Assembly (NCBI GenBank): GCA_031367385.1
Contig: JANLPS010000390.1
Span: forward strand, 1-27,410
Direction of reading: 5' to 3'
Length of the DNA stretch: 27,410 nt
Source of the DNA: Archangium sp.
GTDB lineage: Bacteria; Myxococcota; Myxococcia; Myxococcales; Myxococcaceae
The notes under the pieces are model-generated. The model did no database searches, had not been told where the DNA came from, and saw only the letters and a list, made by a program, of their open reading frames with translations. The position numbers and the translations under genes are program-made. This document shows positions 4,339 through 25,769 of this stretch, piece after piece. Each line of letters starts with the position of its first letter. Position 1 is the first letter of the stretch.

Positions 4339-4371
4339 CAACGGCCCGTCGCTTTGCGAAAAGCGTTCGGC

Positions 4372-5109: not shown

Positions 5110-5113
5110 CCCC

Positions 5114-5267: not shown

Positions 5268-5303
5268 CGCGTGGGTGACCAAAGGTCGGCGAGATTCGCG
5301 CCC

Positions 5304-6098: not shown

Positions 6099-6099
6099 G

Positions 6100-8073
<1,974 letters not shown>

Positions 8074-8230
8074 GGGGTGTGAACCGTTACACACCGGGGC
8101 CTCCGCGACATGGGCGAGCGAAGGCGCAAGTGTGCGTCACGGTACGGGTTTTCGACCATGGTGCTGCAAAGTTCTTCGGGCCGCGCTTTTCGACCTGGCC
8201 TCCCGTGCGGTTGGTCTCGAGGAGGCACTC

Positions 8231-8887: not shown

Positions 8888-10081
8888 TCACCGCGGCTCG
8901 ACTGGCCGCTCGTAGATTCGGTACGTCTTGATCTTTCGAGCGCCGGTCGCCTGAATCGTTCGGTTGATCAGCGTGTCGTCTTCGAGCACCCAGCCCATTT
9001 CGCCCGACGCATACCCGAGCTTTTGCGCCGCTTGAAACGTCTCGAGCGCCAGCAACGCGTCGATGCCACGCCGGCGAAACCCGTCTTTGATGCCGAACAA
9101 CAACACGCGCAGGCGCTCGATTTTTCGCGCTGCCCACAGCAGCTTGGCCAACCCGAAGGGGAAGAGGTAGCCGCCAGCCGCCTTCAACGCGACGTTCGTA
9201 TCGGGCAGCGTGATGCCGAACGCGACGGCTTCACCGTCAACCTCGGCGATGAATGAGAGCTCAGGCCGCAGCAAAATGACCGGTCGCACGCGGTGCACCA
9301 GATCATCGAACTCGCTGTCGCTCATCGGCGCGAACCCGAAGCCCGGCCGCAACATGCCTTCGTAGATGCCCTTGATTCGTCGAATGTCGGCCTCGGGGTT
9401 GCTCGTGTCGAGCCGTCGCACCCGAACATGGCCCGTGGCTTTGACCCGCTCGGCCAGGCGCGTCACCTTGTCGGGCAGACCCTGGGCGGCGACGAGCTCC
9501 CAGCTCCAGAGGTCTTTCATTTTCACGAAGCCATTCGCCTCGACCAGGCGCGAATAGTACTTCGGGTTGTACGGCATCATCATCGACGGAGGGCGATCGA
9601 ACCCGTCGATCAGCAGCCCGCAGTCGTGGTGAAAGGCGAGGTTGATCGGCCCCACCAGCCGCTGCATGCCGGCCCGGCGCACCCACTCGGTGGCGCGCTC
9701 GAACAAGGCGGCGGCGACGCCCGGGTCGTTCTGCGACTCGAACATGCCGAAGAACCCATCGCGGCTGTCGTGAAAGCGGTTGTACCGGCTGTCGACCACC
9801 GCGGCGATGCGGCCCACGGTGCGGCCCCGTCGCTTGGCCAAGAAGAACGCGGCGCGCGCCTGGCCGAAAAACGGGTTCACCTTGGGGTCGATGAAGTCGC
9901 GGCGCTCGGCCACGATGGGCGGCACGAAGTTGGTGTCACCCGCATAGTGCTCGAGCTGAAAGCGCACGAACGCGTCGCGCCCGGCCGAGCCAGAGACCTC
10001 TTCAACAATCACGTCAGCCGCCGCCACCGCGTGCTGCGGAGGCGGGACCGGCGGTGTCACCAGCTGCGCCCGACGAGCCAC
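8888..10081 (-). CDS. YghO-like GNAT acyltransferase (bacterial ceramide synthase-like), paralog 2
   Basis: Motifs D.NFVPP, NPFF, VGRIAA, FFGMFE, GFD.PP.MMMPYNPKYY, WVLEDD, KTYR; clearly paralogous to the adjacent gene. Confidence 0.85.
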   Translation of the reverse strand: MARRAQLVTPPVPPPQHAVAAADVIVEEVSGSAGRDAFVRFQLEHYAGDTNFVPPIVAERRDFIDPKVNPFFGQARAAFFLAKRRGRTVGRIAAVVDSRYNRFHDSRDGFFGMFESQNDPGVAAALFERATEWVRRAGMQRLVGPINLAFHHDCGLLIDGFDRPPSMMMPYNPKYYSRLVEANGFVKMKDLWSWELVAAQGLPDKVTRLAERVKATGHVRVRRLDTSNPEADIRRIKGIYEGMLRPGFGFAPMSDSEFDDLVHRVRPVILLRPELSFIAEVDGEAVAFGITLPDTNVALKAAGGYLFPFGLAKLLWAARKIERLRVLLFGIKDGFRRRGIDALLALETFQAAQKLGYASGEMGWVLEDDTLINRTIQATGARKIKTYRIYERPVEPR

Positions 10082-10085
10082 GCTC

Positions 10086-11288
10086 TTAGTTCTTCACAGT
10101 CGCGGCGAGCGTCTTGCCGACGACGCGATAGGTCTTCGAGCGGGTCGCTCCGAACACTTCAATCACCCGGTTGACCATGTCGTTGTCTTCGAGCGTCCAC
10201 CCGATTTCGCCGCCGACCCAGCCGAGCTTCTTGGCGACGTTGTAGGTCTCGAGCACCAGCAGTGAGTCGAGGCCGCGCTTGCGAAACTCAGGGCGAATGC
10301 CGAGCGCGATCAATCGGCCGCGGTTGATCTTCTTGAGGCTGAGCAACATCTTCACCAGGCCAATCGGCATGCCGTAGGTGAAGAGCTTGCCGTTGGCTTT
10401 TTTGATCGACTGGTTCGCGTCGGGCACCGTGATCGAGAAGGCAACTGGCTTGCCCTCGACCTCGGCGAAGAGCACCAGCTCGGGCTTGAGCACCAGCTTG
10501 AGCTCCTTGCCCATGGTGTCGAACTCCTTGTCGGTCATCGGCACGAAGCCCCAGTTCTTCTCCCAGGCGGCGTTGTAGATCTCCTTGATGCGCCGAACCT
10601 CGTTGTCCCAGTCTTTGAGCACCGCCGGGCGCATCACGATGCCCTCGCGCTTTTGAATTTTGGCGGCGATGCGAGCGACCTTCTCGGGGGCCGGGTGATC
10701 GGTCTTCAGGTCCCACGCCCAGAGGTCTTTGATCTTGCCGTACCCGCAGGCCTCGGCGAGGTCCAAGTAGTACTTCGGGTTGTAGGGCATCATGATCGCC
10801 GGGTCTTGATCGAAGCCCTCTGCCAAGAAGGCCCACTCACCGTTGCTCGAGAAGCTCGCCGGGCCCCAGCAGTCATTGAGGCCGCGCGCCTTCACCCAGG
10901 CTTCGGCGGTTGAGAAGAGCGCCCGCGCCACCGCCACGTCATTGACGCACTCGAAGAAGCCGAACCAGCCGACCTTGGTGCCGTGAAACTCGTTGTAGCG
11001 GGGGTCTTCGACGGCGGCGATGCGACCGACGATCTTGCCTGCGCGCCGAGCCAGGTAGAGCTGCGCGCTGCCGAACTCGAACCAGGGGTTCTTCTTCGGG
11101 TCGAGCACCTGCTCCCTGTCCATCACGAGGGGGGGCACGAAGTTCGGGTGGTCGCCGTAGATCTCGTACTGAAACAGAATGAACGCCTTGCGATCGGCTG
11201 CGGTCACGACCGGCGTCACGAGCACGTCTCCGGACATCACGGGGGCTACCGATGCTGCGCCTGGGCTCGTCTGAGGGGTCGTCGACAT
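10086..11288 (-). CDS. YghO-like GNAT acyltransferase (bacterial ceramide synthase-like), paralog 1
   Basis: HPNFVPPL, KNPWF, VGRIAA, GWFGFFE, GFD..P.IMMPYNPKYY, YNAAWEKNWGFVPMT, RKRGLD, WTLEDN, KTYR. Confidence 0.88.
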   Translation of the reverse strand: MSTTPQTSPGAASVAPVMSGDVLVTPVVTAADRKAFILFQYEIYGDHPNFVPPLVMDREQVLDPKKNPWFEFGSAQLYLARRAGKIVGRIAAVEDPRYNEFHGTKVGWFGFFECVNDVAVARALFSTAEAWVKARGLNDCWGPASFSSNGEWAFLAEGFDQDPAIMMPYNPKYYLDLAEACGYGKIKDLWAWDLKTDHPAPEKVARIAAKIQKREGIVMRPAVLKDWDNEVRRIKEIYNAAWEKNWGFVPMTDKEFDTMGKELKLVLKPELVLFAEVEGKPVAFSITVPDANQSIKKANGKLFTYGMPIGLVKMLLSLKKINRGRLIALGIRPEFRKRGLDSLLVLETYNVAKKLGWVGGEIGWTLEDNDMVNRVIEVFGATRSKTYRVVGKTLAATVKN

Positions 11289-11329
11289 TGTGCGCGCTTG
11301 TAGGAGAATGGCGGTTCGGCAGTCAAATC

Positions 11330-11345
11330 GAGCAATATATTGCTC
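11330..11345. promoter_or_regulatory. Perfect 16-bp palindrome GAGCAATATATTGCTC, putative operator
   Basis: Read directly; AT-rich core in GC-rich DNA, about 42 bp upstream of the GNAT start. Confidence 0.7.
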
Positions 11346-11450
11346 ACACTAAACTTCCGTTAAATCGGGCGGTTTGGCCCATTCAACTCAGTGACAGACG
11401 TCGAAGTGAGGCCGCAACCGCCTGAAACCGAGTGCGAATTGGCGAATACT

Positions 11451-11466
11451 GAGCCATATATTGCTC
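11451..11466. promoter_or_regulatory. Second copy of the palindrome, GAGCCATATATTGCTC (1 mismatch)
   Basis: 15/16 identical to the 11330 copy, offset by 121 bp, in the same divergent intergenic region. Confidence 0.7.
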
Positions 11467-11680
11467 GTTCGGCTGCGTAAACGACCTCTCAGTGGCGACC
11501 CCATTCGGCGTCAATGCGGTTTTATCCAAATGATATTACTGCGTCATTTGACCTTGATCGGGTCCCTGCGCACCTGCGTTCCAACTGCGCAAAGACCACT
11601 GCGCAGAGGGTCTCCTGCTTGACCCCTCACAGTGACCTGTCTATTCCACGCCCACTTTCGAAGCTCACCGGAGTGACCCG

Positions 11681-13573
11681 ATGACTCACCTCTACGACTA
11701 CCCCAATTTGATCGCCGCCATCGATGGCTCGAAAGGCATGGTCGACAAGGGCTTCACGTTTCTCGACCGAGATCAAAAAGAGCTCTTCTTCTCGTGGGAC
11801 GGGCTGCGCGAAGAGGCGAAGCGCCGGGCTGCGCACTTTCGCAGCTACGGGCTGAAGAAGGGCGACCGCCTCGCGATGGTGCTGCCAGACGGCGAAGACT
11901 TCGTGCCGACGTTCTTGGCCGCGGTGTGGGCCGGGTTGGTACCGGTGCCACTCTACCCGCCGCTGTCGATGGGCAAGCTCGACTCGTACATCGACACGCT
12001 GATCACCATTCTGAACAAGGCCGGCCCGACCTACATCACCACCAACGCCAAGGTGCAGGCAGTGCTCTGGAGCGGCCTGTCGAAGGTCTCGAGCCTCAAG
12101 GGCGTGATCACCGCCGAAGAGCTGCGCGGCGCTGCCCCTGCTGGCGTGTCGCAAGAACCGGCCGAGGTCAGCGACACCGACCTGGCGTTCTTGCAGTTCA
12201 CCTCGGGCTCGACGTCGACTCCGAAGGGCGTGGCGGTCACCCACGGCAACCTGCGCGCGAATGCCTGGGCGATCATGCGTGACGGCCTGAAGACCGACCC
12301 AGCCGTCGACCACGGCGTGTCGTGGCTGCCGCTGTACCATGACATGGGGCTGATCGGCTTCGTCATCGCCCCGATGTTCCACAAGGTTCAGATCACCTTC
12401 ATCCCCACGATGGCGTTCGTGCGAAAGCCGACGCTGTGGCCCGAGACGATCTCGCGGGTGCGGGGCACCATCTCGTTTGCTCCGAACTTTGCCTACGCGT
12501 TGACCGCGAAGCGCTCGAAGCCCGAGCAACTCGAGAAGTGGGACCTGTCGTCGATGCGGGCCTTCGGTTGCGGCGCCGAGCCGATCAACCCCACCACGAT
12601 GCGCACCTTCGTCTCGCAGTTCACCAAGGCCAAGCTCAACCCGAGCTCGCTGCTGCCCTGCTACGGCATGGCCGAGGCGACCCTGGCGATCAGCTTCATC
12701 GCGCTCGACGAAGAGCTCTCGACCGACGTGGTCGACCAAGACGCGTACCAGACCGAAAAGCGCGCCGAGCCGGTACACCAGAGCAAGCTGAGCGCTGGCC
12801 GAGCCCAAGAATTCGTGTGCTGCGGCAAGGCCTTTCCCCAGCATGAGGTCGCGGCGTTCGATGACGCTGGCCTGCGGTTGACCGACCGTCGCATCGGCGA
12901 GCTCTGGGTGCGCGGCCCGTCGATCGCCACCGGGTACTACGAAGACGTCGAGCAGTCGCAGAAGACCTTCGGGCACGGCTGGCTCAAGACCGGAGACTTG
13001 GGCTACCTGGTCAACGGCAACATCTACATCACCGGCCGCAAGAAAGACCTGATCATCATCAACGGTCGCAACTACGACCCGCAGCGCATCGAGTGGATCT
13101 GCGACGACCTGCCCGAGGTTCGCAAGGGCAGCAGCGTGGCGTTCTCGCGGCCCGGCGCGGCGAGCGAAGAGCTGATCATCGTGCTCGAGTCGCGAACCGA
13201 GAACAAAGCCGCCCTGCAAGAGCTGGTGACCCAAAAGGTCAATGAACAGCTTCAATTGCAGGCGACCGAAGTGGTGATCGCGCCGCTGGGCAGCTTGCCC
13301 AAGACCTCGAGCGGCAAGCTGCAGCGCTCGAAGACCCGCCAGCAGTTCATCGACGGCACGGTCGGCAAAGAGGGCAACCGCTCGCTCGGCAGCAACGCTG
13401 AGAAGTTGGTGCTCGCACGGCACGTGGCGCTCTCGTTGCTGGGCCGTACCCAGCACCGCGCCAAGGCCGTGGTCGCGCACGCCAAAGAGATTCACTCGGT
13501 CACCGACGCGATGGGCAAGCTCAAGTTGGCGGGCAATTACTTCTCGAAGCGCGTCTCGACCCTCCTCGGCTGA
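11681..13573 (+). CDS. Fatty acyl-AMP ligase (FAAL)
   Basis: FLQFTSGSTSTPKG, SWLPLYHDMGLIG, PNFAY, YGMAEATL followed by a FAAL-type insertion, TGDLG, GRKKDLIIINGRN, LPKTSSGKLQR. Confidence 0.93.
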   Translation: MTHLYDYPNLIAAIDGSKGMVDKGFTFLDRDQKELFFSWDGLREEAKRRAAHFRSYGLKKGDRLAMVLPDGEDFVPTFLAAVWAGLVPVPLYPPLSMGKLDSYIDTLITILNKAGPTYITTNAKVQAVLWSGLSKVSSLKGVITAEELRGAAPAGVSQEPAEVSDTDLAFLQFTSGSTSTPKGVAVTHGNLRANAWAIMRDGLKTDPAVDHGVSWLPLYHDMGLIGFVIAPMFHKVQITFIPTMAFVRKPTLWPETISRVRGTISFAPNFAYALTAKRSKPEQLEKWDLSSMRAFGCGAEPINPTTMRTFVSQFTKAKLNPSSLLPCYGMAEATLAISFIALDEELSTDVVDQDAYQTEKRAEPVHQSKLSAGRAQEFVCCGKAFPQHEVAAFDDAGLRLTDRRIGELWVRGPSIATGYYEDVEQSQKTFGHGWLKTGDLGYLVNGNIYITGRKKDLIIINGRNYDPQRIEWICDDLPEVRKGSSVAFSRPGAASEELIIVLESRTENKAALQELVTQKVNEQLQLQATEVVIAPLGSLPKTSSGKLQRSKTRQQFIDGTVGKEGNRSLGSNAEKLVLARHVALSLLGRTQHRAKAVVAHAKEIHSVTDAMGKLKLAGNYFSKRVSTLLG

Positions 13574-13614
13574 AAAGCCTCTTCAAGCCTCACGCAACAA
13601 AAGGAAAACAGCAC

Positions 13615-13875
13615 ATGGCTCAGGTCAGCATCACGCAGTTGTTCGCGCAGGCCGCTCAAGAAGTGAACGGCAAGAAGCTCGCGAATCTCACCAAAGACAC
13701 GGTCATCTCGAAGCTCGGGCTCGACTCGGTCGCGGTGATGGAGCTGGTCAGCTTCTTCGAAGAGAAGCTCAACATTCGCATGCCTGATGATGACCTCGCG
13801 AAGGTGCAGACCCTGGGCGATTTGGGTGCGCTGGTGCAGCGGCTGTCGCCTCCGGGCACTGAAGTCAGTTTCTAA
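13615..13875 (+). CDS. Free-standing acyl carrier protein
   Basis: LGLDSVAVMEL phosphopantetheine site; 86 aa; AAGGA RBS upstream. Confidence 0.93.
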   Translation: MAQVSITQLFAQAAQEVNGKKLANLTKDTVISKLGLDSVAVMELVSFFEEKLNIRMPDDDLAKVQTLGDLGALVQRLSPPGTEVSF

Positions 13876-13894
13876 AGTTTGACGAGGTGACCTG

Positions 13895-16800
13895 ATGGCT
13901 GACGGCTCGAACGACGACAGCTCCCGCAGCACCGACATCGCGGTGATCGGCATGTCGTGCAAATTTCCGCACGCGGCTGATCTGCCCGCGATGTGGAAGC
14001 TGATCAGCACGGGAGAAGTCGCGTTCGAAGACATCGGCGATTCACGGTGGACGCACTCGTCATTCTTCGAGCCCACCGACGTTCGCGCGCCCGACAAGAC
14101 GTACGTTCGCAAGGGCGCCTTCATCGACGGCGTCGAGGAGTTCGCGGCGTTGCACTACGGGCTCGCTCCGCGCCGCGTGCAGGTGATGGACCCGCAGCAG
14201 CGCCTGGCGATTGAGATGACCCGGCAGGCGTTGGCCGACGCTGGGTACGACGTGAAGGGCTTCGACCGGGCCCGCACCGGCGTGTTCATCGGCGCGTCGG
14301 TCAGTGAGTACAAAGACGTGATGGGCGCTCGGCACCGCGCTCAGCAGATGGTCGACGGTGACTTCGGAGATCGGTTGTCGCCTGAAGAGGCGGCCTCGCT
14401 CAAGTCAGCGGTCGCCGACGTGGTGCCGATTCGCGCGTTCAGCATCGCTGGCTCGTTGCTGAACATGATCGCCTGCTCGGTCTCGCAGACCTTCGACTTG
14501 AACGGCCCCGCGATGCAGATCGACGCGGCGTGCAGCTCGGCATTGGTGGCGATTCACGAAGCGTCGATCAACCTGCGCGCGAGGCAGTGCAACGTGGCCA
14601 TCGCTGGCGGTGTGTACCTGAACCTGCACCCCGACAACCTGGTCGGGTTCTCACGCATCGGTGCCATCTCGATGAGCGGCGTGTGCCGGCCCTTCGACGA
14701 GCGCGCCGACGGGTTCGTGATGGGTGAGGGCATCGGCCTGGTGGTGCTCAAGCGCTATGAAGACGCGGTTCGCGACGGCGATCGAATTTACGCGGTGATG
14801 CGCGGGTCGGGCTGCAACAACGACGGTCGCGGCGAAGGGCCGATGACTCCGCGGCCCGAGGGGCAAATCGAGGCGATGCGCCGGGCGCACAGCGAGCTTC
14901 AGGTGCCCATCGAGACGATTGGGTACGTCGAGACGCATGGCACGGCCACCACCGTCGGCGACGCAACCGAGGTCGGAGCGCTCAAGAAATTCTTCGATGA
15001 GAAGGCCGGTCACGCGCTGACCCACCCCTTCGCGTACCTGGGCAGCATCAAGGCGAACATCGGCCACACCATGTCGGCCGCGGGCGTCGCCGGGTTCATC
15101 AAGACCTGCTTGATGTTGCATCACCGCGTGATTCCTCCGCAGCCAGGGTGTGAGAGCCTGAACCCCAAGCTCGATTTGACGCACTCGCCCTTCAAGATCA
15201 GCGATCAAGCGCGTGCGTGGGAGAAACCGAATGGTTTTCCCCGGCGGGCGGCGGTGTCGAGCTTCGGGTTTGGCGGCACCAATGCGCATGTAATCGTCGA
15301 AGAGACTCCGGTGCGTGATGAGGTGCCGGCTGATCGAGACGAGCTGTTTCTGGTCTCAGCGCCGACTCCGGAGCTGTTGATCACCTATGCGAACGCGCTG
15401 GCTGATCAGGTCGCCGCGCAGGCCTTGCGCCCGGCCGACGTGGCCTACACCTTGTCGACGCGAACCGTCTTCCCCGCGCGGGCGGCGTTCGTGGCCAAGG
15501 GCCGTGACGCGCTGATCAGCGCGCTTCGCTCGGTGAACGGGCAGCTGGTGGGCGAGGCCGCTCCGAAGGTGGCCTTCTTGTTTCCCGGTCAGGGGGCCCA
15601 GCGGGTCAATCTGCTCAAAGACCTGGTCGAGCGGTACCCGTCGATCAAAGCGCGCCTGGCGCAGTACGAGCTGGCGGCGGGCGTCTCGATGCTCCCCTCG
15701 TTGTACCCCGCTGCGGGTGCAGACCTGGCCGCGGCGCAGGCGCATCTGACACGCACCGAAGTGTGTCAGCCGGTGATGGCCGCGCTGGGTCTCGCGCTCA
15801 GTGAGTTCTTGAAAGAGCTGAACGTGGTGCCCGCGATGGTGCTGGGGCATTCGCTCGGTGAGTTCGCCGCGTCGGCCGCGGCCGAGATGATCACCCCCGA
15901 GGTCGCGGTGCGGCTGGTCGCGCAACGGGGCCAGTTGATGGCTGATCTGCCCCTCGAAGATGCGGGAGCGATGATCGCGGTGATGGCCGAGCGTTCGGCG
16001 GTCGAGCAGCTGCTGCAGTCAGGCCCCGAAGGCGTGTGGCTGGCGAATCACAACCACCCGAACCAGGTGGTGCTCAGCGGTACGACCCCGGGCATCGCGC
16101 GCGCCGAGATCAAGCTCAACGCCGCGGGCCTCAAGTCGACTCGCCTCGATGTGTCGCACGCCTTTCACTCACCGCTGCTCGACGGAGTCGACCCCGGCGT
16201 GACCGCGCTGGTCGAAGCGCTCGAGGTGGGCGAGCCTAAATGCCCAGTGATTTCATGCATCGAGGGCCGCGCGTACACTTCTGCCGCCGACGCGAAGGCC
16301 GTGTGGGCGAGTCATGCGACCGCTCCGGTGCAGTTCGTCGACGCGGTCACCGCGTGCGTCGCAGCGGGTGCGACTGACTTCGTTCAAGTGGGTGCCGGCT
16401 CGGCGTTGCTCTCGTTCGCTCGGCCGATGGCAAAAGACGCGAAGACCTGGGCGATCGCTCCCAACGAGGGCGGCGATGACGGGGCGCAGTTGTTGTCGAC
16501 GCTGGGCCAGCTGTGGGTCAAAGGCGTGCCGCTCAAGGCGCGCGCGTTGTTCGAGGGCGCCGAGGCGAGCTTGGCGATGGTGTCGCCGACTCCGCTCGAG
16601 ACGCAGAAGTATTGGGCGATCGAGCGCACCGCCCGCACGCCACATGTACCGTTGTCGCGCACGGTCGTTTCTTCTCCGGTTTTGCAGGCCAAGGGTGTCT
16701 CGATGGACAATCTGATCGCTTTGTTCGCGCAGCAGAACGCGCTGTTGCAGACCCAGGCTGATGTACTCAAGGCGCAGTCGGCGACGCTCGTGGCACTGGC

Positions 16801-19800
16801 CGGTGGGCAGCCGGCGCTCGCGCCCTCGCTGCCGGGCCCCGCGGTGACGCCGCCAATGCAGGTCACCGAGCCGGTCGCTGCTGCTCCGAAGCCTCCCAAC
16901 TTTTCGAACCTGGTCGCGGCGAAGGCGGTCGTGGCCCCCGTCGCTGCGAAGCCCCCGGTCGTCGAAGATCTGCGCCCGATGGTGCAAGAGAAGGTGCTGG
17001 GCTCCGTCTCGCGGATCAGCGCTTTCCCCGTGCAGACGTTGAAGCTCGACGCGACGCTGGTCGGTGACCTGGGCTTCGACTCGCTGATGCTGGTCGAGCT
17101 TGATCAAGACATCGGCAAGGGGTTTCCCTCGCTGGGTGGGCTGCCTCGCGAGCTCTTCAGCAAGACCACCACCGCCGCGACCGTCATCGAGCATGTCGTC
17201 AATGCCCTCACCAACACAGTGCCCGCGCCGATTGAAGCGGTGCCCACGGCGTCAGTGCCGCTCGAGCGGTATGTGCCGACGGTGTTGGCGGCTCCGTTGA
17301 CCAGCCTGACCGAGACGGTGACCCGTCTCGAAGCGCCGGTGTTGGTGACGCGTGACTCGCACGGCATCGCCGAAGCGCTGGTCGCCAAGCTGGCCGAGCA
17401 GGGTGTGTCGGCGAAGATTGGTGACCTGGGCACCGCGGGCCCGTTCGCGGGCGTGATGCACCTGGCTGATGTCTCGGCGAGCGGCGATTACCGGGCTCCG
17501 ACGCACAACGCGTTGGCGCTGGCGAAGAAGCTCACGGCTGAAAATGCCGAGGTCTTCATGACCGTCTCGGGCCTCGGTGGCCGGTTCGGCCTGACGGGCA
17601 CCAAGCGTGAACAGCTGGGCCAGGTCGGTGCGCTCGGCTTCACCCGGGCACTGGCGCAAGAGTGGCCTGACGCGGTCGTCAAGGCGGTCGATGTCGACCT
17701 CTCGCTGAACGCGGCTGATCTCGCCCAGGCGCTGGTCGATGAGCTGATCAGCGGAGACCGCACCAACGAGGTCGGGTTCTCGTCGGCGGGTCGCATGACG
17801 GTCGGGTTGGCTCCAGCGATGAAGACCACCGGTGAGGTGATCGGCGCTGATCAGGTCGTGTTGATCAGCGGCGGCGCCAAGGGCCTCGGGCTCAAGTTCG
17901 CCAAGGCCCTCGCGAAGAAATCGAAGTGCACCATCGCTTTGACCGGTCGTTCATCGGCCGAGGTCACCGGCGAGGTCGTCGCGGCTGGTGCGCGCGCGTG
18001 CAGCTTTCACGTGATGAACGTGCGCGACCCGAGCAGCGTGCAGCACGCGGTGAGCGAAATTCGCAAGCAGTACGGGCGCATCGACGTGGTGGTGCACGCG
18101 GCAGGGGTGCTGGCCGATGCGCTGGTCGCGAAGAAGGAGGTCTCGGCGCTCGATTCAGTGCTCGAGACCAAGGTCGGCGGCGCGCTGGCGCTGCTCGACG
18201 CGGTGCCCGAGGCGAAGCGCTTCATCGGCATCGGCTCATGGGCCGGCCGCTTCGGCAACGCCGCGCAGACCGATTACTCGGCCGCGAATGCGATGTTGGC
18301 TCGGGTGGGCCGGGCGACGATTGATTTTCCTCCGTTCGAAGACTCGGAGATGGTCAAGAAGATACCCGCGTTTCGCAAGGCCGAGCTGAGGGCCTCGGGC
18401 GTGACCTTCTTGACCGATGACGAGGGCATGGCGGCGTTCTTGACCGAGGTCGAGGGTGGCGTGGGTGAGGTGCTCGTCGGCCGTGGGTTGCCCGAGCGCG
18501 TCGTCAAACACACCGGCACGTTCCCCGTGTCGCGGCTCAACCACGTGTACCTGAATGATCACACCATGGCCGGTCAGCGCGTGCTGCCCTTCGCCTCGGC
18601 GCTCGATCACGTCACCGCCGCCGCCCTCGAAGCGAGTGGTGCGCAGGGCTTCACTGCCTTCACCGTGAGCGACTTCGCCTTGCAGCGCGCGGTGCTGGTG
18701 CCTGACACCACCTGGCTCGAGGTCTCGACGACCTCAGCGAAGCGAGCTGGCCGCGCTGGCGCCATCGAGGTCACCCTGAGCCAGGGGCAGGCCCTCTCGT
18801 ACAAGGGCGTCGTGACGTTGGGCGTTTCGAGCTCGGTGCCCGCAGTCAAAGCCATCGTCGCGGGCGGCGATTTGCCGATGTCGCTGAGCGATTTCTACAG
18901 CGGCTTCACCTTTCACGGGCCGCGCTTGCAGGGCATCACCCGCATCGACGCGGTCTCTGATGTCGGCGTGGTCGGGTGGGTCAAAGGCAGCCGCCCCTCG
19001 GAGTGGATCAAAGAGCCCCTGCGCTCGGAATGGACCGTCGACCCGTTGATCATCGATGCCTCGTTTCAGCTCGCTGGGTACTGGGCCTGGGTCAAGCAGC
19101 AGCGCGCCGGTTTCCCCCTCGCGCTGGGCACCTTCGTGCAGCTCAAGCCGTTCGGCATGGGCCCCGTGAAGTGCACGGTGAACTTCGAGACCTCGAGCGA
19201 CGATTTCTTCTCGGGCACCCTGGTTTGGCACGACCAGAAGGGCGACGTGTTGGCGTACATGACCGGCACCAAGGCCGAGTTCAAGAAGCGCGACCCGCAG
19301 TTCGCTCCGGCGAAGGTGCCCAACGAAGCGATTGCTCCAGCGACCGGCCCGGTGCCCGACGAAGCCACGTGGAACCCGGCGAAGTTCCCCGAGTATGAAG
19401 ACTTACAGGAGCGGCTGCAGATGGCCGAGGCCTTCGGTCTTCGCAACCCGTACTTCTCGGTGCACGAGGCGATTTGCGGTGACACCACCGTCGTCAACGG
19501 CAAGGAGATGATCAACTTCTCGTCGTACAATTACGTCGGCAACTCGGGCAACCCGGTGGTCTCGAAGGCGGCCCAAGACGCGATCACCAAGTACGGCACC
19601 TCGGTGTCGGCGAGCCGCGTGGCCTCGGGTGAGAAGCCGCTGACCCGTGAGCTCGAGGTCGCGTTGGCCGACTTCTTCGGCACCGAAGATTCAATCGTGA
19701 TGGTCTCGGGTCACGCCACCAACGTCAGCGTCATCGGCCACATCGTCGGCGCGGGTGACCTCATCGTTCACGACGCCCTGGCGCACGACTCGATCATCGG

Positions 19801-20593
19801 TGGCGCCAAGCTCAGCGGTGCCAAACGTCGCCCTTTTCCTCACAATGACTGGGAGGCGCTCGACCGCATGCTCACCAACCTCCGGCCGCATTACCGCCGA
19901 GTGTTGATCTGCATCGAAGGCACCTACTCGATGGACGGCGACATACCCGAGCTGCCGAGGTTCATCGAGGTGAAGAAGAAGCACCACGCGTTGCTGCTGG
20001 TCGATGAGGCACACTCGGCGGGTACGGTGGGCAAGACCGGCCGCGGCATCGGCGAGTACTACAAGGTCAATCGCGCTGACGTCGACCTGTGGGGCGGCAC
20101 GTTGTCGAAGTCGTTCGCGAGCTGCGGCGGGTACATCGCTGGCAGCAAGGCGCTGGTCGAGTACCTCAAGTATACGACCCCTGGGTTCGTCTACTCGGTG
20201 GGCATCTCGCCGCCCAATGCGGCCGCGGCGCTGGCCTCGACCCAAGAGATGATCGCTCACCCCGAGCGCGTCACCAAATGCCAAGAGAACGCGAAGTATT
20301 TTCTCGAGCTGTTGCACTCGCGGGGCATCAACACCGGCATGTCGAAAGACTCGGCGGTGGTGCCGGCGATCATCGGCAACTCGGTGCTCTGCCTGCAGCT
20401 GAGCGACGCGCTCAAGACCCGCGGCATCAACGTGCAGCCGATTCTGTACCCGGCGGTCGAAGAAGATCAGGCGCGGTTGCGCTTCTTTCTCTCGTCGCTG
20501 CACAAGAAAGAACAGCTGCAGAAGACCGCTGATGTTCTCAAAGAAGAGCTCGAGCGGTTGACCCGAGAGATGAACGCTGAAGCCGTTGCTTGA
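13895..20593 (+). CDS. Type I PKS KS-AT-ACP-KR-DH fused to a PLP alpha-oxoamine synthase (SPT/AONS family)
   Basis: KS: DAACSS, HGTAT, NIGH. AT: GQGAQ, GHSLG, HAFH (malonyl-type). ACP: LGFDSL. KR: GGAKGLG, HAAGVLAD, DYSAAN. DH: DHTMAGQRVLP and DASFQ. AOS: NFSSYNY, AHDS, YSMDGD, DEAHS, GTLSKS (PLP Lys). GAGGT RBS upstream. Confidence 0.95.
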   Translation: MADGSNDDSSRSTDIAVIGMSCKFPHAADLPAMWKLISTGEVAFEDIGDSRWTHSSFFEPTDVRAPDKTYVRKGAFIDGVEEFAALHYGLAPRRVQVMDPQQRLAIEMTRQALADAGYDVKGFDRARTGVFIGASVSEYKDVMGARHRAQQMVDGDFGDRLSPEEAASLKSAVADVVPIRAFSIAGSLLNMIACSVSQTFDLNGPAMQIDAACSSALVAIHEASINLRARQCNVAIAGGVYLNLHPDNLVGFSRIGAISMSGVCRPFDERADGFVMGEGIGLVVLKRYEDAVRDGDRIYAVMRGSGCNNDGRGEGPMTPRPEGQIEAMRRAHSELQVPIETIGYVETHGTATTVGDATEVGALKKFFDEKAGHALTHPFAYLGSIKANIGHTMSAAGVAGFIKTCLMLHHRVIPPQPGCESLNPKLDLTHSPFKISDQARAWEKPNGFPRRAAVSSFGFGGTNAHVIVEETPVRDEVPADRDELFLVSAPTPELLITYANALADQVAAQALRPADVAYTLSTRTVFPARAAFVAKGRDALISALRSVNGQLVGEAAPKVAFLFPGQGAQRVNLLKDLVERYPSIKARLAQYELAAGVSMLPSLYPAAGADLAAAQAHLTRTEVCQPVMAALGLALSEFLKELNVVPAMVLGHSLGEFAASAAAEMITPEVAVRLVAQRGQLMADLPLEDAGAMIAVMAERSAVEQLLQSGPEGVWLANHNHPNQVVLSGTTPGIARAEIKLNAAGLKSTRLDVSHAFHSPLLDGVDPGVTALVEALEVGEPKCPVISCIEGRAYTSAADAKAVWASHATAPVQFVDAVTACVAAGATDFVQVGAGSALLSFARPMAKDAKTWAIAPNEGGDDGAQLLSTLGQLWVKGVPLKARALFEGAEASLAMVSPTPLETQKYWAIERTARTPHVPLSRTVVSSPVLQAKGVSMDNLIALFAQQNALLQTQADVLKAQSATLVALAGGQPALAPSLPGPAVTPPMQVTEPVAAAPKPPNFSNLVAAKAVVAPVAAKPPVVEDLRPMVQEKVLGSVSRISAFPVQTLKLDATLVGDLGFDSLMLVELDQDIGKGFPSLGGLPRELFSKTTTAATVIEHVVNALTNTVPAPIEAVPTASVPLERYVPTVLAAPLTSLTETVTRLEAPVLVTRDSHGIAEALVAKLAEQGVSAKIGDLGTAGPFAGVMHLADVSASGDYRAPTHNALALAKKLTAENAEVFMTVSGLGGRFGLTGTKREQLGQVGALGFTRALAQEWPDAVVKAVDVDLSLNAADLAQALVDELISGDRTNEVGFSSAGRMTVGLAPAMKTTGEVIGADQVVLISGGAKGLGLKFAKALAKKSKCTIALTGRSSAEVTGEVVAAGARACSFHVMNVRDPSSVQHAVSEIRKQYGRIDVVVHAAGVLADALVAKKEVSALDSVLETKVGGALALLDAVPEAKRFIGIGSWAGRFGNAAQTDYSAANAMLARVGRATIDFPPFEDSEMVKKIPAFRKAELRASGVTFLTDDEGMAAFLTEVEGGVGEVLVGRGLPERVVKHTGTFPVSRLNHVYLNDHTMAGQRVLPFASALDHVTAAALEASGAQGFTAFTVSDFALQRAVLVPDTTWLEVSTTSAKRAGRAGAIEVTLSQGQALSYKGVVTLGVSSSVPAVKAIVAGGDLPMSLSDFYSGFTFHGPRLQGITRIDAVSDVGVVGWVKGSRPSEWIKEPLRSEWTVDPLIIDASFQLAGYWAWVKQQRAGFPLALGTFVQLKPFGMGPVKCTVNFETSSDDFFSGTLVWHDQKGDVLAYMTGTKAEFKKRDPQFAPAKVPNEAIAPATGPVPDEATWNPAKFPEYEDLQERLQMAEAFGLRNPYFSVHEAICGDTTVVNGKEMINFSSYNYVGNSGNPVVSKAAQDAITKYGTSVSASRVASGEKPLTRELEVALADFFGTEDSIVMVSGHATNVSVIGHIVGAGDLIVHDALAHDSIIGGAKLSGAKRRPFPHNDWEALDRMLTNLRPHYRRVLICIEGTYSMDGDIPELPRFIEVKKKHHALLLVDEAHSAGTVGKTGRGIGEYYKVNRADVDLWGGTLSKSFASCGGYIAGSKALVEYLKYTTPGFVYSVGISPPNAAAALASTQEMIAHPERVTKCQENAKYFLELLHSRGINTGMSKDSAVVPAIIGNSVLCLQLSDALKTRGINVQPILYPAVEEDQARLRFFLSSLHKKEQLQKTADVLKEELERLTREMNAEAVA

Positions 20594-20622
20594 TCAACGA
20601 AGTGCGTGAAGGAAGCTTTCAA

Positions 20623-21501
20623 ATGACCTCGACTCAAGAAGAAGTTGAAATCGGTTACGACATCAGCAACGAGTTTTTTCGCCTCTGGCTCGACGAGCGC
20701 ATGCACTACACCAGCGCGGTGTACGACGCCGAGCACACCACGCTCGAGCAGGCGCAGCGCAACAAGAGCAAGTGGCTGGCTGATTTCGCCGAGGTGACTC
20801 CCGAATCGCTGGTGCTCGACATCGGCTGCGGCTGGGGCGCCAACCTTGAATACCTGGCCCTCGAGCGAAAAGTGCAACGCGCGCATGGCATTACGTTGTC
20901 GCGTTCACAGGCCGATGAAATTACGGCTCGCAAGCTGCCCGGCGTGACGATGTGGGTCGAAGACTACAAAGACTTCGCTCCGAAAGAAAAATACGACGCG
21001 CTGATCAGCATCGAGATGATCGACCACCTGGTCTCGCCCGCGCAGCAGCAGCAGGGCCTCGCGATTCAGATCTACCGCGACTACTTCAACAAGACCGCCA
21101 AGTGGGTCAAGCCCGGTGCCTGCTTCGGGTTTCAGGCCATCTTGCGCGACCGCGTGCCCCGCACCCGCGCCGATTTGGAAGATTTGAAGTTCACCGCAGA
21201 CGTCATCTTCCCCGGTGGGCTCAACCCGCGGCTCGAAGAGCTCGTCGCCGCGTGTGGCCAGTCATGGGAGATCATTCAGCTCAACACCCGCCGGGTCGAT
21301 TACGGCAAGACCACCGCTGAGTGGCTGCGCCGCTACCGCATGAACAAAGACAAGATCATGGCCTCGGGCTGGGGCGATCGCAGAATGAGCAATGGCGAGA
21401 CCGTGTGGGTCAACTACGAGCGGTACCTGGCGACCTGCGTGAAGGCCTTCGCCAACCACTGGTCGAGTGACGTGCAGATGAAGCTGCGCCTCAAAGACTG
21501 A
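20623..21501 (+). CDS. SAM-dependent methyltransferase, cyclopropane-fatty-acid/mycolic-acid synthase family
   Basis: YDISNEFFRLWLD..M.Y, LEQAQ..K, LDIGCGWG, GITLSRSQ, IFPGG, DYGKT. Start at ATG 20623 (GAAGGA RBS); the alternative TTG 20590 overlaps the PKS stop. Confidence 0.9.
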   Translation: MTSTQEEVEIGYDISNEFFRLWLDERMHYTSAVYDAEHTTLEQAQRNKSKWLADFAEVTPESLVLDIGCGWGANLEYLALERKVQRAHGITLSRSQADEITARKLPGVTMWVEDYKDFAPKEKYDALISIEMIDHLVSPAQQQQGLAIQIYRDYFNKTAKWVKPGACFGFQAILRDRVPRTRADLEDLKFTADVIFPGGLNPRLEELVAACGQSWEIIQLNTRRVDYGKTTAEWLRRYRMNKDKIMASGWGDRRMSNGETVWVNYERYLATCVKAFANHWSSDVQMKLRLKD

Positions 21502-21681: not shown

Positions 21682-22488
21682 TCAAGCCAGCTCAACCCAC
21701 GCTTCATTGCGTCGCAAGAAGGGCAGGGTCGACGGAGCGTCGTAGCCTGCAAACCCCGTCAGCCCGGCGGGCTTGAGCCCCTGGGCCTTGAGGTTCGCGA
21801 GCAGGCGCAGCTGCATCTGCTCGTTGTCTTCACCGTTGAAGGTGCCCTTGTAGCGCAGCGCGGCCACTCGGCGGGCCGGCAGGGCGCGCAGCCGAACCTC
21901 GTGGTTGAGCGGCGAGGGCAGGCTGGCCAGTGAATACCCGTCTGGCATCACGAAGCGCACCAGGTAGCTGCCGTCTTGCATCATCGCGAGGTCGGTCTTT
22001 CGCTCGCGAATCTGGGTGACGGGAGCGGTCATCTCGATGCGCTCTCCGGTCGCGTTGTGGCCGAAGATGTACTCGGCGAGCACCCGAAAGCCGATGTCGA
22101 GCGCCTCGCGAAAGGAGTCGGCGCGCACGGTGGTCTCGGCCACGGTTTGGGGTGAGTAGTGCCGAATTTCGACCTCGTCGGGCCCAACGGAGGTCTCGAC
22201 ATCGTAGGTGGCTTGCTCAGAAAACAAGCGGGCCATTTGCCAGCGAAACAGGCCCAGCCCGAGCGCCGCGCCGAGACCGATGATGGCCGGAGGCTTGGTG
22301 AGCGCGTCGAGCAGGCTGCGAGCCGGGCTGACGCGGCGGCGCTGCAGCAGGTCGGTTTGGGTGGCGACGTAGAGGCCCGCGCCAGCGGCGGCGAGCACGG
22401 CTCCGGCTGAGATGAGGCCAATCGACTTCTTCGAGGCCACGACTGGAGGCGGGGGTGCGGCTTTGCGGGTGCGGGGCTTGCTCGGCAT
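21682..22488 (-). CDS. SOUL heme-binding family protein with N-terminal hydrophobic extension
   Basis: EIRHY, FRVLAEYIFG.N...IEMTAPV, FVMP, YDAP.TLPFLRRNE; AAGGAG RBS before ATG 22488. Confidence 0.88.
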   Translation of the reverse strand: MPSKPRTRKAAPPPPVVASKKSIGLISAGAVLAAAGAGLYVATQTDLLQRRRVSPARSLLDALTKPPAIIGLGAALGLGLFRWQMARLFSEQATYDVETSVGPDEVEIRHYSPQTVAETTVRADSFREALDIGFRVLAEYIFGHNATGERIEMTAPVTQIRERKTDLAMMQDGSYLVRFVMPDGYSLASLPSPLNHEVRLRALPARRVAALRYKGTFNGEDNEQMQLRLLANLKAQGLKPAGLTGFAGYDAPSTLPFLRRNEAWVELA

Positions 22489-22671
22489 GGGGGCTCCTTC
22501 AAAGTGACTTCGACGACCGGTTTGCAATTCGAAGACCCGAGACTTTCACAGCTGCGCCTGAAGGGGTCGGTTCTCAAATTCGCCACATTCGACCCGGTCA
22601 GTGCGGCGATCACGCTGCGATGTGGGGAATTTCGCCTTGCCTCAGGGCCGCGATGTCGCCAGACAGCCACG

Positions 22672-23592
22672 ATGGCCTGGCTGAACTACCACCACCTCTT
22701 GTACTTCTGGACGGTCGCTCGCGCGGGCACCATCGCCGCCGCCAGCAAGGAGCTGCACCTCTCGCAGCCCACCATCAGCAGCCAGCTCAAGACCCTCGAA
22801 GACGCGCTGGGCGAGCGGTTGTTTCAGAAGCACGGTCGACGCCTGGCGCTGACCGACGTGGGCCGAACGACCTACCGGTATGCCGATGACATTTTTCGCC
22901 TCGGGCGCGAGCTGCAAGAGGCCGTGTCGCGGGGGCCGGTGGGCGAACAGGTGCGCTTCGCGGTGGGCGTGACCGACGTGATACCCAAGTTGGTGGCCGA
23001 GCGGTTGTTGCGGCCTGCCTTTGCTGCCTTGCCGCAGCTGCAGCTCGAATGCGTCGAGGGGCCGTTGCCGCAGCTGTTGGGCCAGCTGGCCCTGCATGAG
23101 CTCGACGTGGTGCTCTCTGATCAGCCCTCGCCCAATGACATCAAGGTGCGCGCGTTCAACCACGCGCTCGGCGAGAGCGGCACGTCGTTCTTCGCCCGGG
23201 GCCCTCAGGCGGCGGCGCTGCGCAAGGGGTTCCCCGAGTCGCTGACTGGCACGCCGATGTTGGTCGCGCGCACCGGTACCGACACCCGCATGCACTTGGA
23301 TCAGTGGTTCGACGACAAGAAGGTGAAGCCGAAGATCGTCGGCGAATTCGACGACTCGGCGCTGATGAACGTGTTCGGGCAGCGGGGGCTGGGCGCGTTC
23401 ACCGCTCCCACCGCCATCGAGGCCGAGGTGGTCAGCCAGTTCGACGTGCAGGTGGTGGGGCGCACCGATGAGCTGATGCAGCGCTTCTTCGCCATCTCGG
23501 TCGAGCGAAGGCTGCGGCACCCCGCGGTAGTGGCCATCGCCGAGTCGGCTCGCACCGAGGTGTTCACCGAGAGCGCTACTCCTTCTTCTTGA
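22672..23592 (+). CDS. nhaR: LysR-family transcriptional activator, NhaR-like
   Basis: MAWLNYHHLLYFWTVAR.G...A...LHLSQPTISSQLK.LE, EFDDSALM..FG and ISVERRLRHPAV are typical of the NhaR subfamily. Confidence 0.85.
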   Translation: MAWLNYHHLLYFWTVARAGTIAAASKELHLSQPTISSQLKTLEDALGERLFQKHGRRLALTDVGRTTYRYADDIFRLGRELQEAVSRGPVGEQVRFAVGVTDVIPKLVAERLLRPAFAALPQLQLECVEGPLPQLLGQLALHELDVVLSDQPSPNDIKVRAFNHALGESGTSFFARGPQAAALRKGFPESLTGTPMLVARTGTDTRMHLDQWFDDKKVKPKIVGEFDDSALMNVFGQRGLGAFTAPTAIEAEVVSQFDVQVVGRTDELMQRFFAISVERRLRHPAVVAIAESARTEVFTESATPSS

Positions 23593-23818
23593 GCGTCGCG
23601 GAGTTCTCTTTGATGAACGCCCGAATGTCGTCGGCCAGGTCGAGCAGCTTGACCCACTGCTCCTGGTAGAGCGTGACGGGAAAGCGGCCGAGGCCGTACA
23701 CCGAGAGCCCGCCCTTCTCGCTGACCTTCATCGAGATGGCGCGCGAGCTGCGGCTCTTCAGCGCTTCGTTCTCGGCCTTGAGGCGTTCGAGCTCAGCCTT
23801 CATTTCTGTTTCATTCAT
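23576..23818 (-). CDS. Small conserved hypothetical protein (N-terminal coiled coil)
   Basis: ELERLKAENEALK coiled coil followed by KVSEKGGLSVYGLGRFPVTLYQEQW, a motif I recognise from a widespread uncharacterised family. Confidence 0.8.
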   Translation of the reverse strand: MNETEMKAELERLKAENEALKSRSSRAISMKVSEKGGLSVYGLGRFPVTLYQEQWVKLLDLADDIRAFIKENSATLKKKE

Positions 23819-23933
23819 GGGCCGCACGCTCGGCTGCGGCGATGACGACGTCAAGGCCGGTCGTGGCTCGACGCGCTCATCAAGAAATGGGGGTGCTGAA
23901 CAGAATGTCAGTGGTCTATGCTAGAACGTTCGC

Positions 23934-24260
23934 ATGACACGAAATCTGAATCGGTTGGCGGAGTGGAGCGTGGTGGATGGTCTCGTGACCGAAGTGTACC
24001 GGGAGACGTCGCTGCTCTCACCGGCAGAGCCGGTGCGAGACTTGATGCGCGAAGCGGCGTTGTCGCTGGCGACGATGAGCTCGCTCGAGGTGGCGCACGC
24101 CAAGCTGGCGACGCTGGGGTACCTGTTTCGGCTCGCCAACGAGTCGGGGCTGGTGCCCCTCGAGGTGGTCTCTCGAATGCTCGAGCGCATTCTCGAATCG
24201 GCCCGGGCGTTGCGGCGCTTCACCCCGAGTGGCTCCCAGCCGGTGCCCGACCCCGGTTGA
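23934..24260 (+). CDS. Hypothetical protein, possibly a divergent four-helix-bundle (23S rRNA IVP/Avd-like) protein
   Basis: All-helical pattern L..W.....LV.EVY..T...P..E....MR.AA.S....L..A...L..L.Y...LA...G; fills the gap between neighbours without overlap. Confidence 0.5.
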   Translation: MTRNLNRLAEWSVVDGLVTEVYRETSLLSPAEPVRDLMREAALSLATMSSLEVAHAKLATLGYLFRLANESGLVPLEVVSRMLERILESARALRRFTPSGSQPVPDPG

Positions 24261-24269
24261 CGCGTAGAA

Positions 24270-25769
24270 TCAGTCGTCGAACAGCGCTGAGACGAACTCT
24301 TTGGGGTCGAAGGGCCGAAGGTCTGAGACCTTTTCGCCGACGCCGACCCACGCCACCGGCAACTTGAGCTCGTCACAGATACCGATGATGACGCCGCCCT
24401 TGGCGGTGCCGTCGAGCTTGGTCAACGCGATCGCCGTGATGCCCACGGCTTCGTGAAATTGCCGAGCTTGTGCAATCGCGTTTTGCCCATTGGTGGCGTC
24501 GAGCACGAGCAACACCTCGTGCGGAGCGCCGGGCACCGCTTTGTCCAACACCCGCTTCGTTTTCTTGAGCTCCTCCATGAGATTCAGCTTCGTATGCAGT
24601 CGGCCGGCGGTGTCGGCGATCATCAAATCGGCGTTGCGGGCCTTGGCGACCTTCGCGGCCTCGAAGACCACCGAGGCGGGGTCTGCGTCTTCTTTGCCTT
24701 TGACAAGCTCGGCGCCCGCGCGGCCGGCCCAGACGTCGAGCTGCTCGGCGGCGGCGGCGCGAAAGGTGTCTCCGGCGCCCAGCACGACCGACTTGCCCAT
24801 GCCCTTGGCCTTCGCCGCGAGCTTGCCGATGGTGGTGGTTTTGCCCGCGCCATTGACGCCGACGACCATGATGACGTGCGGAGGCCCGCCGCCCCCCAGG
24901 GTGTGGTTGGCTTTCAGGTCGACGATTCGCTCGACCTCTTTTCGAATGACCGCCTTGACCTTGTCTGACGAGTCGAGCTCTTTGCTCCGGGCCTTTTCGC
25001 GCGCCAGCTCGACCAGCGCCGAGGCGGTCTTGACGCCGATGTCGGCGCTGAAGAGCACCTCTTCGAGCTCGGCGAGCACCTTGTCATCGATGGCCTTCGG
25101 GGCACCCCCGAAGAGCCCGTTGAGGCGCGCCATGAACCCTTCGCGCTTGGTCTTGGACAGGCCCGCGGCGAGGGTCTGGCCCCCTTCGGCCTCGACCTTG
25201 ACGGCCAGGGCGGCGGCGGCCTCTTGGGAGCGTTGGGCGGCATCTCGTTTCTCTTGCTCGATGGCCTCGAGGCGCAGGCGCTCGGCTTCGTCGCGTTCAC
25301 GCTTCTTGCGCTCGCGCTCTTCGACCTCGACGCTCTTCTGGGCCCGGTACGCGTCTCTCTTGGCTTCTTCTTCTTGGTCTTTGAGCCGTCGGGCCTCGGC
25401 CTCGAGCTGGCCCTTGAGCCCGGCGTCGGCCTGGCGCGCGTCGGCTTCGAGCTTGGCGCGTTCGGCGTGCAACCGGTCAGCAGCCTGCTTGGCCTGCTCT
25501 GCGCCTGCCCGGGCCTTGAGCTCGGCTTCGGTGGGCGGCAGCACCACCTTCGGTGCTTCGGGTACCACGCTGGGCTCGAGCGAGACCGGCGGTGGGGCGA
25601 GCGCCTTGGGCTGCGAGGGGCCCCCGCGGGCCATCAACCGGCGAACCACGAGCGCCATCAACAGCAGCAGCGCGACCACGACCGCGATGGTGATGCCATT
25701 GCCCAGCAGGCTGCTTGGCTCGCTGACGGGAGGAACGGGGACTTCAGTCTGCGCGAACACCGGCTTCAT
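24270..25769 (-). CDS. ftsY: Signal recognition particle receptor FtsY with N-terminal TM and coiled coil
   Basis: GVNGAGKTTTIGK, DTFRAAA, DTAGRLHTK, DATNGQN, TKLDGTAKGG, GVGEK..DL..FD. Start taken at ATG 25769. Confidence 0.96.
   Translation of the reverse strand: MKPVFAQTEVPVPPVSEPSSLLGNGITIAVVVALLLLMALVVRRLMARGGPSQPKALAPPPVSLEPSVVPEAPKVVLPPTEAELKARAGAEQAKQAADRLHAERAKLEADARQADAGLKGQLEAEARRLKDQEEEAKRDAYRAQKSVEVEERERKKRERDEAERLRLEAIEQEKRDAAQRSQEAAAALAVKVEAEGGQTLAAGLSKTKREGFMARLNGLFGGAPKAIDDKVLAELEEVLFSADIGVKTASALVELAREKARSKELDSSDKVKAVIRKEVERIVDLKANHTLGGGGPPHVIMVVGVNGAGKTTTIGKLAAKAKGMGKSVVLGAGDTFRAAAAEQLDVWAGRAGAELVKGKEDADPASVVFEAAKVAKARNADLMIADTAGRLHTKLNLMEELKKTKRVLDKAVPGAPHEVLLVLDATNGQNAIAQARQFHEAVGITAIALTKLDGTAKGGVIIGICDELKLPVAWVGVGEKVSDLRPFDPKEFVSALFDD

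Follow-up and report, generated by a model that had tools for sequence, protein, structure and literature searches.

The gene cluster at positions 8888-21501 of a 27,410-nt stretch of Archangium sp. DNA (contig JANLPS010000390.1, genome code G000:C110; "the window" is this whole stretch) is probably the main ceramide pathway of the cell, a non-orthologous replacement of serine palmitoyltransferase (SPT). The relatives of the window are metagenome-assembled genomes (MAGs) of Myxococcaceae. A pair of minus-strand genes encoding GNAT-fold acyltransferases, GNAT1 and GNAT2, is separated by a 392-nt gap from plus-strand genes encoding a fatty acyl-AMP ligase (FAAL), an acyl carrier protein (ACP), a polyketide synthase (PKS) fused to an alpha-oxoamine synthase (AOS), and a CMAS-family methyltransferase. 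An initial reading of the letters alone, here called the sequence-only reading, had proposed this gene set and its divergent arrangement. Frames and strands agree with it throughout: every gene is present where it had been placed, intact, and all frames are open (table 1).

The proposed fusion is encoded by one 2232-aa frame. According to the domain search, its order is KS-AT-ACP-KR-DH-AOS, with one ACP and no detectable enoylreductase (ER) domain. The catalytic motifs are intact and conserved over 50 aligned fusion proteins (a few sequences entered twice). They comprise C213, H348, and H391 in the ketosynthase (KS), S653 and HAFH in the acyltransferase (AT), S1063 in the ACP, Y1461 in the ketoreductase (KR), H1556 and D1721 in the dehydratase (DH), and H1964, D2037, H2040, and K2072 in the AOS. 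The AOS, a pyridoxal phosphate (PLP)-dependent enzyme, keeps its catalytic lysine, histidine, and aspartate across the same alignment (GTLSKS with K2072, DEAH, and HDSI).

The AOS is 53% identical to that of the Pseudomonas locus L233, an orthologue of SgaB that matches the published PfSgaB nearly letter for letter by eye, and 36% and 33% identical to the myxobacterial and Escherichia coli SPTs, respectively. PfSgaB of Pseudomonas fluorescens MYb115 is described as a serine-specific SPT in vitro that, together with the PKS SgaA, gives C24-C28 sphinganines (PMC12134224). The active-site motifs of the AOS closely match those of the SgaB clade. It falls outside the canonical SPT clade, as the NCBIfam SPT models give scores of 209-275 against cut-offs of 500-670. 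The sequence-only reading had called for a phylogeny of the AOS with SPT, BioF, and Kbl; in a quick tree it is separate from all three and groups instead with SgaB-like proteins and planctomycete FAAL-ACP-AOS fusions (SH-aLRT 99). Assignments as BioF or Kbl were rejected on neighbors and motifs, BioF lying at C379 beside bioB and Kbl at C485 beside tdh. In planctomycetes, FAAL-ACP-AOS fusions of about 1,120-1,260 aa are widespread, and their AOS belongs to the same clade (L032-L078, e.g., L033:7751-11260). Two actinobacterial genera, Skermania and Kutzneria (L035:6611-11230; L374), encode a KS-AT-ACP-type PKS and an AOS of this clade; in Skermania the two are fused, and a FAAL precedes them.

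The replacement of canonical SPT by the cluster, as suggested by gene content, is visible only across genomes. We sampled 201 Myxococcaceae genomes and counted as fused AOS the matches of at least 65% identity, dropping 8 of 66 (48-55% identity, in SPT-bearing genomes). The fused AOS occurs in 58 genomes (52 in frames of at least 1,750 aa) and a canonical SPT match in 128. Only two genomes, G059 and G063, combine the two, and the PLP lysine and the DDAH aspartate are missing from their SPTs, as they are from that of G004, where the cluster is cut by a contig end. None of the 58 genomes with the fused AOS has an SPT match keeping the PLP lysine. Two genomes (G008:C375 and G018:C443; L174 and L173) carry CerR-like and GNAT genes, with neither SPT nor fused AOS found; in G008 the GNAT gene runs off the contig end.

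The early dead copies of G059, G063, and G004 are still beside GNAT genes and keep the motifs GPR and FT(T/S)(S/A)L. In the window genome, the ancestral SPT copy (G000:C46:19385-20686) is beside a MlaC-like gene, which is found next to the intact operon as well. This copy (L169:8386-9687, minus strand) is an open 433-aa frame with no Pfam match, and its C-terminal motif FDAVETLTWRA also occurs in active myxobacterial SPTs. Similarly decayed copies were identified in 52 of the 201 genomes. Of these 52, 48 carry the fused AOS, none has a canonical SPT match, and 45 show no stop inside the match. They have lost the lysine, stacking-histidine, SGSR, and FSAS motifs and kept their N- and C-terminal parts, and in the quick tree they group, on long branches, with the early copies inside the Myxococcaceae SPTs (support 97). 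Among 16 pairs of them, the 13 closest have a dN/dS of 0.06-0.30 and the three most distant one of 0.48-0.54; eight control pairs, one itself lysine-less, gave 0.11-0.23. The open frames and the dN/dS of 0.06-0.30 mark the decayed SPTs as pseudoenzymes under purifying selection, and on these grounds decaying pseudogenes were rejected. The ancestral SPT thus persists as a dead protein, which would have a noncatalytic role. In most carriers it is separated from the GNATs, unlike in the canonical operon. The idea of a strict LCB1-like partner completing an active site is weakened by the loss of SGSR and FSAS in the late copies. In one intact case (L167:6252-12613), an MMPL-family transporter gene and the MlaC-like gene border the SPT-GNAT operon and form a candidate set for sphingolipid transport.

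The two GNATs connect the cluster to ceramide synthesis. They had been labeled YghO-like, and the label holds: GNAT1 is 35% identical to YghO of E. coli BL21 over 389 aa, and GNAT2 is 30% identical to YghO, over the full length of YghO, and 44% to GNAT1. YghO is named as a ceramide N-acyltransferase homologue in PMC9386255. The predicted structure of GNAT1 is a tandem GNAT fold (pLDDT 88.9), and a sequence search of the PDB with GNAT1 gave chance matches only. GNAT2 diverges at the W-x-x-NWGF motif, which reads MLRPGFGF in the alignment. Orthologues of GNAT1 are directly beside a stand-alone SPT gene in most Myxococcales and several other phyla, and in many relatives they immediately follow the canonical SPT gene. 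In a quick tree, both window GNATs nest among the GNATs of SPT operons, GNAT2 among the second GNATs, and the PKS-linked GNATs form single clades. A position outside the bCerS clade, which would have spoken against a ceramide role, was thus not found with YghO as proxy, and the YghO identities and the tree agree in placing both proteins among bCerS/YghO-type N-acyltransferases. As judged from these comparisons, the window GNATs are native bCerS-like genes of the cell, relocated from the SPT operon to the PKS cluster. Their expected co-conservation with the PKS was borne out in part. Among the best 80 loci matching the AOS, 33 are Myxococcota fusion loci, 7 of which were left out of the adjacency count for too little upstream DNA; GNATs adjoin the cluster in 15 of the 26 evaluable loci, and none is next to the FAAL gene in the other 11.

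The FAAL matches NCBIfam PRK09192 (E 2e-153, under the model cut-off) and is 35% identical to E. coli AasR. It has the FAAL insertion, common to AasR and absent from three CoA ligases compared. Its close orthologues occur in 11 of 41 genomes, all of them carriers of the PKS cluster. With the ACP it forms the pair of AasR-type acyl-ACP ligase and dedicated ACP of the ceramide pathway. The FAAL linked to a type III PKS lies at C379, and that identity was rejected for the window FAAL. About 60 C-terminal residues (window 13400-13573) exceed the family models and are kept in close orthologues; they are possibly a membrane or docking helix.

The same AOS type was found in 62 of 301 Myxococcota genomes sampled phylum-wide, in eight families, 55 of them in frames of at least 1,800 aa; only 3 of the 62 also have an SPT match. 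Eight of 70 matches were dropped, four at 48-55% identity in SPT-bearing genomes and four in FAAL-ACP-AOS-sized frames. In the 33 loci, the set FAAL-ACP-PKS::AOS is kept as far as each contig extends; the methyltransferase gene adjoins the PKS gene in 31 and is cut by a contig end in one. Loci from several of the eight families share this core, often with a CerR-like gene alongside, as in the distant lineages L164, L165, L316, L317, L325, and L337; at L315, a bCerS-like GNAT gene is also beside the cluster. A MAG labeled Acidobacteriota (L329:6678-12343) has the gene order CerR-FAAL-ACP-AOS-GNAT, in which the reductase is CerR-like, the AOS stand-alone and of this type, and the GNAT bCerS-like; it has no PKS gene there, which suggests a PKS-less version of the pathway. 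The fused AOS is retained even in genomes of 2.1-2.7 Mb. In a subset of clusters (L019:4075-4938, L311, L315, L319-L322), an acyl-ACP desaturase-family gene (PF03405) is between the ACP and PKS genes or nearby; the window genome is without it. No conserved capsule, export, or tailoring genes surround the cluster in the compared loci. No cultured carrier turned up, as every named Myxococcota fusion locus among the best 80 loci per scan belongs to a MAG. The ER-less KS-AT-ACP-KR-DH::AOS primed by FAAL and ACP, in eight Myxococcota families, is new here. One variant fusion of 1,827 aa (L315:4957-10440) has no AT domain.

These data are consistent with the following pathway. By homology to AasR and AcpR, the FAAL would activate a free fatty acid and load it on the stand-alone ACP. 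The PKS would then extend the chain with malonyl, most simply once, before KR and DH act. A PKS with KR and DH and without ER yields a 2E-enoyl thioester. Given the intact motifs and the missing ER, a 2E-enoyl chain would be left on the internal ACP. The AOS, as its 53%-identical relative SgaB suggests, would condense this chain with L-serine, releasing a 3-keto long-chain base. Condensation of an enoyl chain with serine would place the alkene at C4-C5, giving a 3-keto-sphingosine without a desaturase. GNAT1 would N-acylate the base, as expected from its orthology to SPT-linked bCerS-like genes, and GNAT2, with its altered NWGF motif, may use another acyl donor. The methyltransferase would methylate an alkene, probably on the ACP-bound chain. 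Finally, the 3-keto group would be reduced by an unlinked reductase or stay oxidized. The route from FAAL and ACP through PKS, AOS with serine, and GNAT to methyltransferase, which the sequence-only reading had put forward, fits every test that we ran.

Concerning the last enzyme, membership of the CMAS family stands, but the protein looks more like MmaA1 than like a cyclopropane synthase. It has 292 aa and an MmaA1-type E-x-x-D motif (SIEMIDHL), which is present in 120 of 120 homologues, as is the segment FGFQAIL. The N-terminal lipid-binding domain, the G-x-F-E-H motif, and the LLHT histidine of CFA synthases are missing, and the NCBIfam CFA score is 114 against a cut-off of 400 bits. The reaction of MmaA1 leaves a trans alkene with a methyl branch in the allylic position. 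Fungal sphingolipid C9-methyltransferase is related to CFA synthases. Like the window enzyme, MmaA1 (PDB 8RAQ) is short, without the N-terminal lipid-binding domain, and has the E-x-x-D motif, but identity between the two is low (E 5e-19) and UmaA scores slightly higher. As the window enzyme is short like the mycolate enzymes and has the MmaA1 motif, it more probably adds a methyl branch than closes a ring.

Several observations weigh against a main ceramide pathway. In G000 we found no orthologue of the Myxococcaceae CerR; the best match there is 32-35% identical, compared with 49-79% among orthologues. The window itself is without CerR, and a paralogue at C84 has 32-39% identity with CerR-like proteins, although several canonical-SPT genomes are also without a CerR orthologue. 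The 11 evaluable loci with no GNAT gene next to the FAAL gene count on this side, as does the complete genome G006, which has GNAT2 and a distant GNAT and no close GNAT1. YghO served as the proxy for Caulobacter bCerS. The AOS and GNAT trees are quick searches without bootstrap, in which dead SPTs are long-branched. As the PKS-linked GNATs form single clades, the Myxococcaceae pattern probably reflects about one evolutionary event, and its counts are not independent. Phylum-wide, one carrier of this AOS type (G230) also has a lysine-bearing SPT, and divergent SPTs of distant families that fall below the E-value threshold may have gone unnoticed. Finally, AOS substrate choice is described as not reliably readable from sequence (PMC13692747).

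Some of these points would suit a free or specialized amino-alcohol lipid, such as an SgaAB-like secondary metabolite, a signal, or a surface-polysaccharide anchor, with neighboring GNATs that serve other ends and a loss of SPT that coincides through clade history. SgaAB, the nearest characterized system, makes free sphinganines and PG-sphingolipids, called secondary metabolites, and both the unlinked GNATs and the single event behind the family-level exclusivity are compatible with such a product. We nevertheless find it improbable, as the GNATs came from the SPT operon and moved to the cluster, the SPT is dead in the three genomes with the least-decayed copies, genes for CerR-like or bCerS-like proteins turn up repeatedly next to the cluster in distant families, and capsule, export, or tailoring genes are not conserved around it. 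A still smaller probability attaches to an AOS that takes another amino acid in the same pathway, such as alanine or glycine, with 1-deoxy-ceramide-type or other amino-ketone lipids as products. The distance of the AOS from canonical SPTs (33-36% identity) and the difficulty of predicting AOS specificity would allow it, and 1-deoxyceramides of unknown producers are reported as abundant in the Black Sea (PMC11334938); on the other hand, SgaB, of the same clade and with closely matching active-site motifs, is described as accepting almost exclusively serine when compared with alanine and glycine (PMC12134224). Very unlikely is an iterative, PfaA-like PKS with reduction in trans, making a very-long-chain or polyunsaturated amino lipid: the domain order is PfaA-like, SgaA is iterative with C24-C28 bases (PMC12134224), and another PKS of the genome, at C403, has an ER-like NMO-family domain, but the TIGR02813 score of 600 is below the cut-off of 1010, the single ACP departs from the tandem ACPs of PfaA-type polyunsaturated fatty acid synthases, no PfaB, PfaC, or PfaD partner is present in any locus examined, FAAL/ACP priming supplies a ready chain, and iteration would alter chain length and not the ceramide logic.

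We therefore retain the ceramide pathway and regard the cluster as a variant of PKS-based sphingolipid synthesis, most likely serving as the primary ceramide route. It shares with SgaAB(C) of MYb115 a type I PKS and an AOS of the same serine-specific clade (53% identity to the SgaB orthologue). In SgaAB, the PKS gene is separate, its product is ordered KS-AT-DH-ER-KR-ACP with a KS-AT 29% identical to that of the window, and the bases are saturated C24-C28; the window cluster has a fused AOS, the ER-less order KS-AT-ACP-KR-DH, FAAL/ACP priming, bCerS-like GNATs, and a CMAS methyltransferase. Thus, the AOS clade is shared, and the separate, fully reducing PKS and an SgaC-type short-chain dehydrogenase/reductase, or SDR, within the cluster are not: no stand-alone SDR gene is present in 8888-21501 or conserved beside the cluster, the rest of the genome not having been searched with SgaC. 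The genus table of the SgaAB paper names no myxobacterial genus and only three unclassified Deltaproteobacteria (PMC12134224). SgaAB-like pairs of Pseudomonas, Bordetella, and Achromobacter (L256, L266, L233, L222, and L079) adjoin an SDR gene and genes resembling capsule-modification genes, a hint that such bases may anchor capsules.

The AasR-AcpR-SPT-bCerS-CerR pathway of Caulobacter and E. coli BL21 likewise has an AasR-like FAAL, a dedicated ACP, and a YghO-like acyltransferase (PMC9386255, PMC11324152), and in E. coli BL21 the layout is also divergent, with yghO opposite aasR-cerR-acpR-spt (roles from PMC9386255). The cluster differs from it by a PKS module between ACP and condensing enzyme, an AOS of another clade, the absence of CerR from the window, two GNATs, and an added methyltransferase. 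The canonical myxobacterial operon, SPT-bCerS with an optional CerR and an optional second GNAT, encodes orthologues of the window GNATs; the Myxococcus xanthus SPT appears as a serine-utilizing control in PMC13692747. In the fungal fumonisin and sphingofungin pathways, an AOS also releases a PKS chain, and methyl-branched unsaturated bases exist in fungi (PMC3887071), whereas in fungi the AOS is a protein of its own and the pathways yield toxins. The novelty surmised for the pathway is therefore partial. In the open-access PMC and bioRxiv literature, we found no fused PKS::AOS with FAAL, bCerS, and CMAS methyltransferase, no link of such a fusion to bCerS, and no dead myxobacterial SPT; PKS-made sphingolipids as such are published (PMC12134224).

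The repeated palindromes claimed for the promoter region are real. One copy of GAGCAATATATTGCTC starts at 11330 and a second, with one mismatch, at 11451; at up to two mismatches, these are the only two sites in the 8-Mb genome, both in the divergent gap. The genome has 318 perfect 16-nt palindromes, so one alone is not rare. Upstream of FAAL genes, GAGCAA-N4-TTGCTC with at most one mismatch is conserved in 30 of 35 distinct Myxococcaceae regions and was found in 0 of 14 regions from other groups and 0 of 196 control windows, which are coding and hence an imperfect control. A genome-wide regulon was rejected, with two perfect sites in the genome. Scans for sigma-70 promoters and terminators stayed at chance level.

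The flanks of the cluster (window 1-8100 and 21682-27410) contain ordinary genes, none conserved with it: an FHA sigma-54 activator, a pirin, a hydrolase, an acyltransferase, a double Ser/Thr kinase, a SOUL protein, a LysR regulator, FtsY, and a thiolase-like frame. The LysR gene is not kept beside the cluster in the compared loci. LpxC is present in G000, and lipid A is thus not obviously replaced.

Table 1. Features of the cluster and its divergent intergenic region (positions in the window).
Feature	Position	Strand	Remarks
GNAT2	8888..10081	-	Second bCerS/YghO-like tandem GNAT
GNAT1	10086..11288	-	Candidate bCerS/YghO-like ceramide N-acyltransferase; start may be 11237
Operator-like palindrome, copy 1	11330..11345	.	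GAGCAA-N4-TTGCTC
Operator-like palindrome, copy 2	11451..11466	.	One mismatch
FAAL	11681..13573	+	AasR-like; FAAL insertion; C-terminal extension of ~60 aa
Stand-alone ACP	13615..13875	+	Ser38 in LGLDS
PKS::AOS	13895..20593	+	2232 aa; single module; AOS of SgaB clade
Short CMAS-family SAM methyltransferase	20590..21501 (frame)	+	Likely ATG start 20623

A more far-reaching version of the ceramide pathway is at present doubtful and tentatively offered. In this version, the fused megasynthase would be a housekeeping ceramide source across Myxococcota, making the Δ4-trans double bond of sphingosine by dehydration, without oxygen or a desaturase, with the MmaA1-like enzyme adding a methyl branch and the SPT kept as a selected pseudoenzyme. 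If true, the stepwise decay of SPT could be traced from genome to genome, the displaced SPT would be a bacterial counterpart of the dead LCB1 subunit in eukaryotic SPT, and the products would have converged on fungal-type methylated sphingoid bases. The suggested route to sphingosine would be independent of oxygen, and the SPT copies would form a graded series of change from enzyme to pseudoenzyme after displacement. In its main, probable reading, too, the cluster would connect sphingoid bases from a PKS, until now described as secondary metabolites, with the primary synthesis of membrane ceramides. SPT homology serves as the standard marker for bacteria that produce sphingolipids, and homologues that fall outside the SPT-like clade are disregarded (PMC11334938). 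Where SPT is kept in carriers of the cluster, it is dead and would mislead such SPT-based screens. A considerable part of the uncultured Myxococcota in sludge, soil, and water may make ceramides by a route that these screens could miss.

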